A stretch of DNA of 64,000 bases from Thermoproteota archaeon (GTDB taxonomy: Archaea; Korarchaeota; Korarchaeia; Korarchaeales; JAOZGB01): NCBI GenBank assembly GCA_037917685.1, contig JAVCBU010000012.1, forward strand, positions 32,001-96,000, read 5' to 3'. A model generated the notes under the pieces. It did not search any database. It was not told the origin of the DNA and saw only the letters and a list, made by a program, of their open reading frames with translations. Positions within the stretch are counted from its first letter, which is position 1. Each line of letters begins with the position of its first letter. A program made the position numbers and the translations under genes. Below are positions 8,838 to 14,295 of this stretch, piece by piece.

Positions 8838-9101
8838 TTGAGGTGTCTAGTTACTGGTGCCTCCGGATTCATCGGTGGTCATCTTGTGGAGAAGCTTGTC
8901 CGTGACGGACATGAGGTTAGAGCGCTGGTCAGACGGACTAGTAATGTTAGCCTGCTTAGAAATCTTGGTGTAGAACTTGTATACGGGGATATTACAGTCC
9001 CAGAAACATTAAGGCCTGTTGTTAAAGACGTAGATGTGGCATGGAGGACACAGTTAAATGGTATAGGGATAACGGGCTTCTGCAAGGGTGACGAGAAGTG
9101 A
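8838..9101 (+). pseudogene. 3'-truncated NAD-dependent epimerase/dehydratase
   Basis: Rossmann VTGASGFIG...GDIT...DVDV, then unrelated sequence; 87 aa vs ~320 expected. Confidence 0.75.
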
Positions 9102-9508
9102 GGATTCTCATGTGGCACCTCACAAGTTTCAGGTTCAAACCTAAGAGTAAGGGGAGGACAAGTGTTCTGGGGGAGAAAAGGACTGTTGAAGCTGAGAACT
9201 GCCTTCTAGTCTTCTGCATGGTGGAGAAAAAGGACGCTGAGGGTATCTCAAGCGTTGTCGGAAAGGCTTGCAGGGATATAAGAGAGCAGATGTTAAGAAT
9301 AAAAGTGGATACTGTGGTGTTGCATTCGTTCGCCCACCTGTTCGGAGAACCAGCAAGCCCAGATGTAGCCCTGAAAATTTTAAAGCTGATGGAAGAGATA
9401 CTTCTGCAGGACGGTGTAAAAGTTTTGAAAACGCCTTTCGGATGGTTCGGTGAACTTGAGATTAAGGCTAAAGGTCACCCATTATCGAGAGTGGCGAGGA
9501 AATATTAG
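9098..9508 (+). CDS. Stand-alone archaeal-type threonyl-tRNA synthetase editing domain
   Basis: MRILMWH, VEKKD, FAHL, TPFGW, KGHPLSRVAR motifs. Confidence 0.88.
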   Translation: MRILMWHLTSFRFKPKSKGRTSVLGEKRTVEAENCLLVFCMVEKKDAEGISSVVGKACRDIREQMLRIKVDTVVLHSFAHLFGEPASPDVALKILKLMEEILLQDGVKVLKTPFGWFGELEIKAKGHPLSRVARKY

Positions 9509-10594: not shown

Positions 10595-10707
10595 CCTGTA
10601 AGGTTGCTCCCTAAATCCATGTTGTATACTGGTTCAACCTTGAGATGCATAGTTGAGCACTGTTAAATTTAAGTAGGGAGAACATAGGATGTCTATGAGG
10701 TGATTTT

Positions 10708-12294
10708 TTGTTTAGGGCTCCACGTGGTATGAGGGATATCGTAGGGGAGGAAATGGATTTTTGGTGTTGGGTTGAAGACACAGTGAGGTGTGTTTTTGAG
10801 AGTTTCGGATATAAGCGGGTTGAAACCCCGATATTTGAGCATTTTGACCTTTTCGCCCTTCGTTCGGGTGAGGAGATTAGAAATAGAATGTTTGTGTTTA
10901 GGATTGATGAGGGGGAGGTCGCCCTTAGACCTGAGATTACGGCGTCGATTGCAAGATTGGTCTCCTCAGGTCTTGAGGGTGCTCTACCCTATAGGCTCTA
11001 CTACATTGGAAGATGCTTCCGATATGAGGAGCCGCAGTCTGGAAGGTATAGAGAGTTCTGGCAGGCGGGTGTTGAGCTTGTGGGAAGCGGTAGACCGGAG
11101 GCTGATGCTGAACTATTAATTCTTGCCTACGAGGTTGCCGAGAACGTCGGGCTTCGAGACTTCAACCTTAAGATTGGCGATATGAGCATTATCAGGGGGT
11201 TACTGGAGGACTTTAATGTGCCGACTGAGGTGCAAAATAGGATAATTACACCGTTGGATAAGCTTTCAAGTAGTACTGACAGGCTTAGGGCGTTTCTCAC
11301 AAAGGTTAGGAGAGAGGGAAAGCTTGACAGCTTGGAGGTTAAAGAGCTTGCTAGGATAGCTGATAGCCTCAGAATGTGGAGGATTAAAGAGGCTGAGAAG
11401 ATTTCAGCCGGGTTATCGAAGATTCCACGTGAGCACTGGGAATTCGTAGAGGAGGATCCAAGAATATATCTTCTTGAGGAGTTAAATAGCCAAGGAAAAA
11501 CCAGGGAGCTCGCGAACTTTATAGCTGATACTATTGAAGGGCTTAGGAAGGCTTTAATGTTGGAATGGGCATATAACGGGGTTGATACTGTTAGTGGAAA
11601 ATACTTTCTGGATCCAAAGGCCTCAAGCATGTTGTTCGACCTGATAGGGATTTCGGGTGCTCCTTCGAAATGTATCTCCAAGGTCGACGCATTGGTAAAG
11701 GATCTGAAGAGGGCAGCAGACTCTGTAGAGAGATTCGAAACGATTATAGAGCTTGTAGAAGAGGCCGAATTAAGGTTTACTGTTGACTTTGGCCTTGCTA
11801 GGGGCTTGGAGTACTATACTGGAATGGTTTTTGAAATCGACTATCCCGGGCTTGGAGCTGAAAAGCAGATCTGCGGTGGAGGCAGGTATGACCAGTTAAT
11901 ACAAGAGTTTGGAGGACGTCCTACCCCAGCTCTAGGATTTGGTTATGGCTTGGACAGGCTCGTGCTTGCAGCCATGGACTCCAATTTAAAACCAGCGGTT
12001 CCAAGTAAAAGGCTTTTCCTAGTCCCTATAAGTCCAGACGTGGCTGGATATGCTCTAAAGGTCGCTAGGATGCTACATCACGTAGTAAATCTAACATTTG
12101 ATCTCAAGATTAGAGGTGTCAGAGAGGGATTATCCTATGCTTCAAAGAAGGGTTACAGGTACGCAGCTATCATTGGCAGGTCTGAAAAGGAATACGGAAA
12201 AGTTACTATCAAGGATCTTCAGAGTGGTATGCAGGAAACTATACCACTTGACGGAGTCATAGACTACTTGGTGTCAAAAGATGAGGAGAATTAA
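10708..12294 (+). CDS. hisS: Histidine--tRNA ligase with ~100-aa internal insertion
   Basis: PRGMRD, LRPEIT, FRYEEPQSGRYREFWQAGVE, RGLEYYTG, GGGRYD, GFGYGLDRL plus C-terminal anticodon-binding domain; GAGGTGA RBS. Confidence 0.9.
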   Translation: MFRAPRGMRDIVGEEMDFWCWVEDTVRCVFESFGYKRVETPIFEHFDLFALRSGEEIRNRMFVFRIDEGEVALRPEITASIARLVSSGLEGALPYRLYYIGRCFRYEEPQSGRYREFWQAGVELVGSGRPEADAELLILAYEVAENVGLRDFNLKIGDMSIIRGLLEDFNVPTEVQNRIITPLDKLSSSTDRLRAFLTKVRREGKLDSLEVKELARIADSLRMWRIKEAEKISAGLSKIPREHWEFVEEDPRIYLLEELNSQGKTRELANFIADTIEGLRKALMLEWAYNGVDTVSGKYFLDPKASSMLFDLIGISGAPSKCISKVDALVKDLKRAADSVERFETIIELVEEAELRFTVDFGLARGLEYYTGMVFEIDYPGLGAEKQICGGGRYDQLIQEFGGRPTPALGFGYGLDRLVLAAMDSNLKPAVPSKRLFLVPISPDVAGYALKVARMLHHVVNLTFDLKIRGVREGLSYASKKGYRYAAIIGRSEKEYGKVTIKDLQSGMQETIPLDGVIDYLVSKDEEN

Positions 12295-13510
12295 CATCTG
12301 CACAGTTGGGTGCAGAGGAACTGGAAAGTCAACCCTTACAGGCAGGCTACTTTTAAGGCTAGGTAGGTTTTCACCAGATGATGTAAATAGATGCATAAGA
12401 ATCGCACAAAAGATAGGTAAAGCAGGCTCGGAATATGCATTTCTAGTGGACAGGCTTCTTGAAGAGAGAATAAAGGGAAGAAGCCTAAAGAGTCATATGG
12501 TTAAAGCCGCTGCCGATGGCAACATACTTAGAATCATAGATACACCAGGCTATCCCCATAATATCGGTGAAACTGTTTTAGCACTTAACATATCGGAGGC
12601 CGTCCTCATCCTTACAAGCTATAAAGAAATCGTGGAGAAAAGCCTCACTCTCAAAGACCTCCTTAGAACCGTATTCATATTCGGTCCTAGGAGAATAATA
12701 CCTGTTATAAATCTTAAAGAGGATATAAATGGAGAAAGATTTATAGAGGCATCCGAAGAGTTTAGAAAGATATTGTTGGATGAGAAACTTCTGAATAGAG
12801 TTGTTTGCGACCCGATTCCCATATCAGCCTATGAAGGCTTAAACCTGTGGAACAAAAATTTGGAATGGTATAAGGGTAACCCTCTACTTGATGTAATCCT
12901 TGATCTCAGAGTATACCCTCTACTTAAGGAACCTGCTAGAGCAATAGTTTACAATGTTACAGGTGAGGCCGGAATACCTCTTGTTCACATGCTTAGAGGA
13001 TCGATTAAGGTGGGGGAAAGAGTCCTCCTCTCCCCAGCATCGATAATAGGGAGGGTAGTGGAAGCTGAATCATGGGGGGAGAGGATTAACACGGTATCTT
13101 GGGGGATGGATGCTGGTTTAAGGCTGGAAGGGATAGCGAGGTACCATATTAAAAGAGGGAACCTCATATCGAAGCTTGAAGGAGCCCCCACGGTTTCAAA
13201 CAAGTTCGAAGCATACATCCACTTGTACCACGGGAAATTAAAACCTGGCATGACATTTGCAGCCCAGATGACATACGAGACAGCTCAGTTTAGAGTACTT
13301 GAAGTTCATAATAGATCTCCCCGGGAAGGCGCCACTACTGAAAGTTTAGAGGGGGAGGCGGCAAGCGTCATAGTTGAAGCTGATAGGGACGTAGCATTTG
13401 ACCCTGTCGGTTACGGGCTGAGGACATGCCGGTTCATGCTTAGAGGAGGCATCCCCGGGCGTCGGGGAAGCTGGGTAATAGGATATGGAGATTTTATAGG
13501 TGGTATATGA
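12281..13510 (+). CDS. Divergent EF-1alpha paralog (three domains, degenerate GTPase motifs)
   Basis: GKSTLTGRLL, GK..EYAFLVDRLLEER, IIDTPG, PISAYEG.NL, IKRGNLI, PTVSNKFEA, RFMLR align by eye with EF-1alpha; overlaps hisS by 14 nt. Confidence 0.85.
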   Translation: MRRINICTVGCRGTGKSTLTGRLLLRLGRFSPDDVNRCIRIAQKIGKAGSEYAFLVDRLLEERIKGRSLKSHMVKAAADGNILRIIDTPGYPHNIGETVLALNISEAVLILTSYKEIVEKSLTLKDLLRTVFIFGPRRIIPVINLKEDINGERFIEASEEFRKILLDEKLLNRVVCDPIPISAYEGLNLWNKNLEWYKGNPLLDVILDLRVYPLLKEPARAIVYNVTGEAGIPLVHMLRGSIKVGERVLLSPASIIGRVVEAESWGERINTVSWGMDAGLRLEGIARYHIKRGNLISKLEGAPTVSNKFEAYIHLYHGKLKPGMTFAAQMTYETAQFRVLEVHNRSPREGATTESLEGEAASVIVEADRDVAFDPVGYGLRTCRFMLRGGIPGRRGSWVIGYGDFIGGI

Positions 13511-14295
13511 TGATTAGGGAGCTTTTTAAATGTGACAAGCCCCTCATTGGGGTAGTTCATCTCGAGCCACTCCCAGGCGCCCCTCTTCACAAGCTTAAGA
13601 TGGACGAAATAATAGAGACAGCGCTAGACGATGCCAAGGCATTGTGTAATGGAGGAGTAGATGGAATAATAATAGAGAACTATGGAGATGCGCCCTACTA
13701 TCCGAGGAGGGTTCCCCCGTTTACGGTAGCAGCTATGGCTATTATAGTGAGGCACGTTGTTAAGGCTGTAGATATACCTGTGGGGGTTAACGTCTTGAGA
13801 AACGATTGGAGGTCATCACTATCTATAGCCCATGTGACAGAAGCGTCGTTCATAAGAGTGAATATTCTCTCTGGAAGTTATATTACTGACCAGGGATACA
13901 TTGAAGGCGAAGCACACCTGCTACAGAGGTTAAAAAGGTATCTTAATAGTAGGGTGAAGGTGTTTGCAGACATCGATGTTAAACATGCCGGGAGGATAGT
14001 TCAAAGGCCGTTAGAGGATGAAGCGAGGGATCTATCCGAGAGGTCTCTCGCCGATGCAATAATAGTTACTGGTGAAGCGACCGGCAAGCCTCCACGGATT
14101 GAAAAGGTGAAGATTGTAAAGGAGGCTGTGGGAGACAAGCCTGTGATTGTTGGCAGCGGGTTGACTCCTGAAAATATAGCCTCGTATCTTCGAATATGCG
14201 ATGGCTTTATAGTGGGAACCTATTTCAAGAGAGGACGAAGAGTAAACATAGAGAAGGTTAAAGCACTAGTCTCTATGGTCAAGCAAAGCTCATAG
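13507..14295 (+). CDS. BtpA/SgcQ family TIM-barrel protein
   Basis: IGVVHL..LPG, ENYGDAP, GVNVLRND, ADIDVKH, VTG..TG, IVGT.FK. Confidence 0.92.
   Translation: MMIRELFKCDKPLIGVVHLEPLPGAPLHKLKMDEIIETALDDAKALCNGGVDGIIIENYGDAPYYPRRVPPFTVAAMAIIVRHVVKAVDIPVGVNVLRNDWRSSLSIAHVTEASFIRVNILSGSYITDQGYIEGEAHLLQRLKRYLNSRVKVFADIDVKHAGRIVQRPLEDEARDLSERSLADAIIVTGEATGKPPRIEKVKIVKEAVGDKPVIVGSGLTPENIASYLRICDGFIVGTYFKRGRRVNIEKVKALVSMVKQSS

Follow-up and report, generated by a model that had tools for sequence, protein, structure and literature searches.

Translation factors of the EF-Tu/EF1A type have specialised paralogs, among them SelB, which is dedicated to selenocysteine. Here we describe a further paralog, found in a 64,000-nucleotide stretch of the genome of a Thermoproteota archaeon (Korarchaeota; GenBank assembly GCA_037917685.1, contig JAVCBU010000012.1, positions 32,001 to 96,000 of the forward strand), referred to below as the window. 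It is derived from archaeal elongation factor 1A (aEF1A, or EF-1alpha) and lies directly downstream of hisS, the gene for histidyl-tRNA synthetase (HisRS), whose product is itself modified. Among described systems, aSelBL (MM1309, or "aEF-X"; also treated in PMC3037878) is likewise an additional EF-Tu-superfamily paralog beside aEF1A with a patchy archaeal distribution and a Tyr in place of the catalytic His; according to the available text of its characterisation, it binds GTP, has no detectable GTPase activity and protects Cys-tRNA-Cys (PMC4329189). It differs from the window paralog in being a 350-residue protein of SelB/aIF2gamma type, whereas the window paralog has 409 residues and groups with aEF1A, and in its altered P-loop Lys, which the window paralog keeps; moreover, that text reports neither linkage to a synthetase gene nor a co-evolving synthetase domain. 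Association of an archaeal synthetase with a factor of EF1A type, which affects aminoacylation, is known from the aEF1A-LeuRS or multi-synthetase complex of Methanothermobacter, for which the accessible part of the report gives a kcat raised about 8-fold and proposes channelling (PMC2094089). However, its partners are the general aEF1A and a class I LeuRS, and no dedicated paralog, operon or synthetase insertion appears in that part. The GTPase-regulated ATP sulfurylase CysN-CysD offers an EF1A-derived paralog encoded beside an adenylate-making enzyme, but the GTPase centre of CysN works (DAPGH, NKMD) and CysN adjoins CysD. SelB and Ski7/Hbs1 resemble the window paralog as EF-Tu folds specialised for a single ligand, and Ski7 is described, in the portion of the paper at hand, as an EF1-family paralog with altered G motifs (PMC4933942); in contrast, the window paralog has neither the C-terminal extension of SelB nor an N-terminal extension, is not eukaryotic and matches these proteins weakly.

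The original prediction, made from the DNA letters, knew of no described system like this. Literature searches agree with it: full-text searches, which did not cover supplementary tables, returned no published description of a hisS-linked EF1A paralog, whether as a family or as a pairing, and no archaeal subfamily of this sort appears in the available text of the translational GTPase survey of Atkinson 2015 (PMC4342817), whose additional files may hold relevant tables. Specialised EF-Tu/EF1A paralogs are of a known kind, and what is new is the welded synthetase partner with its co-varying domain. aSelBL is a dedicated paralog for Cys-tRNA, and neither it nor SelB was found tied to a synthetase in the portions of the literature available; the paralog described here is genetically tied to the cell's only HisRS, an enzyme apparently changed where the tRNA acceptor end is touched.

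In the window, hisS (10708-12294, plus strand; TTG start at 10708, TAA at 12292-12294) encodes a 528-residue "long" form of HisRS and is followed on the same strand by the EF1A-derived gene (12281-13510; ATG at 12281, TGA at 13508-13510), which encodes 409 residues in three domains, and then by a btpA/SgcQ-family gene (13507-14295; 262 residues, ATG at 13507, junction ATGA). Read in the sequence, the successive overlaps are exactly the 14 nt and 4 nt originally given. The hisS product scores 357.5 bits against TIGR00442 (cut-off 286.75) and matches PF13393 and PF03129, that is, the class II core and the HGTP anticodon domain. Two checks proposed with the prediction, for a second hisS and for a separate canonical tuf, have clear answers in this 1.81-Mb, 95% complete genome: by the hisS model the window gene is the sole match above cut-off, and a canonical aEF1A (653 bits) is encoded elsewhere, next to rps10-type genes. 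With no second HisRS found by the hisS model, the window gene must supply the housekeeping HisRS, whereas the paralog comes in addition to aEF1A. The long HisRS is also the only HisRS in all six pair-bearing genomes checked, each of which has a canonical aEF1A.

The arrangement of hisS and paralog extends far beyond the window. The paralog lies directly 3' of hisS on the same strand at every one of the 12 loci whose context could be read (the window, L033, L034, G038, G039, G043-G046, G061, G082 and G088), with junctions that overlap by 1-29 nt or leave a 16-nt gap, and the linked paralogs are as little as 25-32% identical to that of the window. Linkage across metagenome-assembled genomes (MAGs), another of the proposed checks, therefore holds in distant lineages, and it is old. 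Within the window's phylum, a family-level match occurs in 3 of 43 species genomes, namely the window's own (G000) and two of a single genus from another order (G038 and G039), where the paralog begins at the hisS stop. Species-representative genomes, when scanned, yielded 80 loci, including six family members (five from Bathyarchaeia MAGs and one record duplicating G039), all with hisS directly upstream; as a control, hisS is nearby in none of the 74 other EF1A/CysN loci. In the class Bathyarchaeia, 7 of 401 sampled genomes have a family-level match (465-562 bits, against at most 376 for aEF1A), and all seven paralogs follow hisS, as opposed to none of the 23 canonical aEF1A loci fetched. A third, more degenerate paralog subclade stands beside long HisRS in two Thermoprotei MAGs, judged by consecutive accessions and locus tags. 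For the members P0029, P0030 and P0032, a hint of linkage comes from the lengths of their longest contigs, which match those of two clusters of long HisRS (10629 and 18402). Close relatives of the window paralog are scarce: two proteins with 82-83% identity were found among 5.8 billion, and among 1.84 billion representatives there is one ortholog cluster, with the next match at 31% identity; its distant best matches are themselves odd EF1A-like proteins. To judge from the MAG names, the habitats of pair-bearing organisms are probably hot or sedimentary.

HisRS from pair-bearing genomes is about 100 residues longer than usual, with an extra piece inside the insertion domain that is homologous across lineages. 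By alignment, the insertion measures 98-115 residues in 38 long HisRS against 4-10 in 36 short ones; in the window enzyme, alignment and the helices predicted by AlphaFold2 (AF2) place an extra segment of about 100-111 residues at residues 186-296 (11263-11595, plus strand). The AF2 model is confident overall (pLDDT 91.4) and across the extra segment (block means 87-96), with predicted insertion helices at 173-203, 208-233, 241-247, 251-261 and 265-290. Its best matches among Protein Data Bank (PDB) entries are HisRS structures, with template modelling (TM) scores of 0.59-0.69 (TMq) and 0.75-0.89 (TMt); in that comparison no solved HisRS covers the extra segment, and no Pfam model matches it. 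The long form follows the paralog strictly: it is present in the same 3 of 43 genomes of the phylum and in exactly the seven paralog-bearing genomes of the 401 Bathyarchaeia, that is, in 10 of 10 pair-bearing genomes versus 0 of 434 others. A hidden Markov model of the long form retrieves about 32 clusters at 90% identity from a large protein database, with names pointing to Thermoprotei and Bathyarchaeota MAGs, and a word-based search with the insertion by itself finds two proteins, both close relatives. A tree of the HisRS core (FastTree only) has a weak backbone, in which one and several origins of the long form are not separated. A related group, P0209-P0214, carries a 31-residue version of the insertion, has its G-1 loop enlarged by 6-17 inserted residues rich in Glu and Arg, and joins the long HisRS in this core tree with 95% local support.

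A second change concerns this G-1 loop, for which long and short forms were matched by alignment to archaeal short HisRS. A D[KL]xxR (DKGGR-type) loop is present in 36 of 36 short archaeal enzymes and in none of the 38 long ones, all of which have a loop that is one residue shorter and acidic; in the window, residues I66-E70 read IDEGE (10903-10917, plus strand). We take the archaeal DKGGR-type loop to be the counterpart of the RGGR loop of Thermus HisRS, and a basic Gly-rich loop of this G-1-pocketing type is missing from the window enzyme. In the Thermus HisRS-tRNA complex, as described in the accessible part of that study, the acceptor stem is clamped by the insertion domain, while G-1 sits in a pocket formed by the RGGR loop (PMC4357726). 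On the strength of these alignments, the HisRS changes would sit at the acceptor end of the tRNA.

The partner protein is an EF1A whose catalytic apparatus has been altered. In an alignment with the aEF1A of the same genome, it shows GCRGTGKS for GHVDHGKS at the G1/P-loop (12308-12331), GRSL for GLTI at switch I, DTPGY for DAPGH at G3 (12539-12553), where the catalytic His is replaced by Tyr, and NLKE for NKMD at G4 (12710-12721), all on the plus strand. These motifs are as the original prediction listed them, and they support its view of an EF1A-derived paralog, now also found to be under selection, with a GTPase centre that is probably dead or at least altered; the GxxxxGKS core of the P-loop is retained even though the HVDH of aEF1A is gone. 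All three EF-1alpha domains are kept, as had been claimed. Canonical aEF1A (TIGR00483; PDB 1jny, 3vmf and 3wxm) shares the three-domain fold, but the paralog is without its catalytic His and G4 and has its domain II motifs replaced. The AF2 model (pLDDT 92.6) matches aEF1A-GTP bound to aRF1 or Pelota with a TM score of 0.89 (Foldseek, 3vmf/3wxm), whereas GDP-form structures fit poorly (0.46), and the paralog is thus predicted to fold as a closed, GTP-form EF1A. In sequence it is 24-28% identical to aEF1A, its best match (E 1e-30); three residues are deleted, and six residues rich in Gly and Arg are inserted near the C terminus. It scores 58 bits against PF00009 and falls far under the aEF1A cut-offs (126.8 versus 540.1 bits for TIGR00483; 130.5 versus 502 for NF008969).

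Other identities within the superfamily can be set aside. With the CysN model TIGR02034 the paralog scores 78.3 bits against a cut-off of 336.1, its neighbours are hisS and btpA instead of an adjacent CysD, and it falls on the aEF1A side of the trees, so that CysN is rejected; a true CysN lies beside CysD on a different contig (C18; L002 1489-3511, minus strand). With the selB model it scores 28.4 bits against 242, the 409-residue protein stops after domain III, and its nearest relatives are of aEF1A type, so that SelB is rejected as well; the prediction had rightly noted that a CysD neighbour and a SelB-type extension are both missing. The genome holds four EF1A-type proteins and further translational GTPase-like matches elsewhere, and one 551-residue GTPBP1-like EF1-family protein lies at L004 1381-3036 (minus strand). 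In the phylogeny against aEF1A and CysN, which had also been proposed, the window paralog joins the odd EF1A-like proteins, apart from both, with 98% local support in a 181-row FastTree and 96% in the Shimodaira-Hasegawa-like approximate likelihood ratio test (SH-aLRT) of a 49-row IQ-TREE C20 quick tree.

The proposed family, whose members NCBI labels "hypothetical protein", is recognisable by its own marks, and the window paralog bears them: a position after a long-insertion hisS, loss of the G3 His, a Trp in domain II and a Gly/Arg-rich insertion ahead of the C terminus. All members retain the P-loop GxxxxGKS. Among the 12 hisS-linked members whose DNA context could be read, none has the G3 His, its place being taken by Y, L, M, I or V; the G3 Asp is replaced by Asn in two, and Trp265 is kept in all. 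The altered G4 found in the window is present but peculiar to that lineage (NLKE, or NLKG in the 82%-identical P0003); other members read NKMD or SKMD. In domain II, the aEF1A stretch IPIQDVY becomes LP[VI]xR[YH][YF] followed by the 3-residue deletion, SIEMHH becomes SxxxW[GD] (EAESWGE in the window, at 13061-13081 on the plus strand, containing Trp265 and standing where aEF1A has SIEMHHE), and PGDN becomes PGED. With spacing checked in the alignment, we take these positions to be the EF-Tu sites Glu226/Asp227, Glu271/His273 and Asn285, which contact the 3' end and the aminoacyl group. The list of these EF-Tu residues comes from the available text of PMC4329189. An Atlas query with the member P0027 returned generic EF1A and CysN clusters only. 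P0307, in the cluster of P0032 within the P0030/P0032 subclade, has an NCBI source label of an Odinarchaeota MAG, a hint that the family may extend outside the TACK archaea.

Purifying selection acts on the paralog. Against the two metagenome contigs that share the hisS-paralog-btpA order (L033 and L034), its ratio of nonsynonymous to synonymous substitution rates (dN/dS) is 0.17-0.18 at dS 0.52-0.54, compared with 0.10 for hisS and 0.11 for btpA. Constraint is strongest in domains II and III, with a dN/dS of 0.11 in domain II.

The conserved unit thus comprises two genes, a modified housekeeping HisRS and a dedicated EF1A-derived partner, and this module probably handles tRNA-His. A physical HisRS-paralog complex at the acceptor end of tRNA-His is the most economical explanation, because adjacency is kept at very low identity, the frames overlap, the paralog co-occurs exactly with a HisRS changed at its acceptor-end surfaces, and the paralog is under purifying selection. 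We give an even chance to the more specific proposal that the paralog, an EF1A-like protein which does not hydrolyse GTP, is bound to HisRS and holds (His-)tRNA-His by its acceptor end, much as aSelBL guards Cys-tRNA; its binding to HisRS, its binding to tRNA and its lack of GTPase activity are what we infer. According to this proposal, the overlapping frames would let the partner be made stoichiometrically with HisRS, and it would dock on the extra helical arm of the insertion domain, at the acceptor stem. The partner keeps the P-loop and, in its predicted fold, the closed, tRNA-binding "GTP-form" architecture; it has lost the catalytic His needed for ribosome-triggered GTP hydrolysis, and its counterpart of the EF-Tu pocket for the aminoacylated 3' end is rebuilt. 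Gripping the acceptor end of tRNA-His, it may take His-tRNA-His from the active site for protection or hand-off, as aSelBL does for Cys-tRNA-Cys, or alternatively may help HisRS to hold the G-1:C73 end. Such a module would be a concrete case of coupling or channelling from synthetase to factor, would bear on the recognition of tRNA-His, the only tRNA with a G-1 residue, and would show a route from translational GTPase to binding subunit by way of lost GTPase activity. Both proteins are small (528 and 409 residues), and the AF2 models are confident for each protein singly.

Several observations weigh against this proposal. The window paralog and its two close relatives sit on a very long branch (3.17), and their membership of the family rests on one split with 96% SH-aLRT, together with synteny and shared indels. 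The restriction of NLKE/NLKG to the window lineage suggests that nucleotide use may differ within the family, and the intact G3 His of P0029 and P0030 means that the family was not always GTPase-dead. Moreover, the domain II signature varies: the Arg of most members is an Asn in the window lineage, and the subclade of P0074, P0129 and P0145 is without the domain II Trp although at least the cluster of P0074 is hisS-adjacent. So uneven a pocket signature weakens the idea of a His-specific pocket. A special need for the module is not evident either, since tRNA-His is ordinary and relatives manage with aEF1A alone. In addition, class II synthetases are not known to be limited in rate by the release of their product, so that any kinetic gain from channelling is uncertain.

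A first alternative, which we consider unlikely, is that the paralog serves HisRS as a pseudo-GTPase subunit, regulatory or structural, and makes no contact with tRNA; it would bind the HisRS insertion, perhaps as a sensor of GTP or some other nucleotide, and adjust how histidine is activated or charged, loosely as CysN drives the adenylyl-transfer enzyme CysD. Adjacency, co-occurrence and coupling fit this equally well, the P-loop is retained in all members while the catalytic residues drift, and the variation of aminoacyl-pocket residues among subclades is expected if no aminoacyl group is bound. CysN-CysD moreover provides, in the available text of the survey, an EF1A fold that controls an adenylate-forming enzyme (PMC4342817). 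However, CysN keeps DAPGH and NKMD and hydrolyses GTP, whereas the His of the paralog is gone, and HisRS requires no energetic coupling. The most constrained parts of the paralog are domains II and III, which bind tRNA in EF-Tu, and its predicted conformation is the closed, ligand-binding one; both speak against this alternative.

It is quite unlikely that the paralog acts away from HisRS and is merely co-transcribed with it, as a general guardian of aminoacyl-tRNA or as a carrier of tRNA mimics modelled on aEF1A carrying aRF1 and Pelota. Operon neighbours need not bind one another, the top structural matches are precisely aEF1A-GTP bound to aRF1 or Pelota, and MM1309 is a precedent for a stand-alone guardian, as far as the accessible text on it goes. 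Yet an independent role leaves unexplained why the remodelled HisRS and the paralog occur in precisely the same genomes, and why adjacency persists at 25-30% identity. A bolder form of the favoured HisRS-paralog complex strikes us as rather improbable too: long HisRS and paralog would make an obligate two-subunit synthetase, in which HisRS would have given up its own G-1-binding loop and the EF fold would supply G-1:C73 recognition and accept the 3' end, once histidylated, straight from the active site. If true, an elongation factor would have been recruited as a tRNA-binding synthetase subunit, independent of GTP hydrolysis.

The original prediction had also counted btpA into the arrangement and suggested that charged tRNA might be diverted to non-ribosomal use. 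The downstream gene is a clear BtpA-family member (PF03437, 304 bits against a cut-off of 30; TIGR00259, 297 against 153) that stays below the photosystem-specific equivalog NF045918 (275 versus 400 bits). Its coupling is real in the window and in close relatives, but it lies 3' of the paralog only in L033 and L034 besides the window; in G038, G039 and Bathyarchaeia different genes follow (nitroreductase-like, OsmC-like or CinA-like, all assigned by eye), and btpA is rejected as part of the conserved module. That His-tRNA-His is diverted to an acceptor other than the ribosome and consumed by btpA or another neighbour is accordingly very unlikely: normal delivery to the ribosome would be beyond a GTPase-dead carrier, and btpA is translationally coupled in the window, but downstream genes vary by lineage with no conserved third partner seen among these loci, HisRS is the sole housekeeping enzyme, and we found no evidence for such a use. 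That the paralog is a decaying, functionless tuf duplicate, as its degenerate G motifs and very long branch might suggest, has next to no probability and is rejected, given a dN/dS far from the value near 1 that decay would predict, a frame intact in all relatives, a confident AF2 model and linkage conserved across classes.

An unusual tRNA-His was considered as a reason for the module and rejected for the pair-bearing genomes covered, in which G-1 and C73 are normal. In five pair-bearing genomes of Bathyarchaeia, the tRNA-His genes are of the ordinary kind, encoding G-1 and C73. In the window's own genome, tRNA-His was missed by Aragorn and by RF00005 (37 matches), and a T-arm scan points to a candidate on contig C6 at about 1570-1700 (L159 171-300, minus strand). 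Read by hand against relatives, this candidate appears to be a tRNA-His(GUG) with encoded G-1, C73 and three introns, of which one follows U8, one interrupts the anticodon stem and one lies at 37/38, and to be preceded by a duplicated 5' acceptor strand; the Rfam search did not recognise it, and this parse is one of hand alignment. In G038, a tRNA-His gene with an apparent T-loop intron, likewise missed by Aragorn, lies about 650 nt upstream of hisS (L068 about 800-910). In relatives of one genus without the paralog, hisS is followed in the paralog's place by same-strand tRNA-Cys and tRNA-His genes (L169 358-677, L071 2813-3133 and L072 489-751).

Upstream of hisS in the window, the sequence contains a candidate archaeal promoter box, TTAAATTTAA (10663-10672, plus strand), and a putative Shine-Dalgarno-like GAGGTG (10697-10702, plus strand) ahead of the TTG start. 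Further upstream, at 9098-9508, lies a gene for a free-standing, 136-residue archaeal ThrRS editing domain (PF08915, 131 bits), which is preceded and overlapped by an 87-residue open reading frame (8838-9101) that by eye resembles an N-terminal fragment of an NAD-dependent epimerase.

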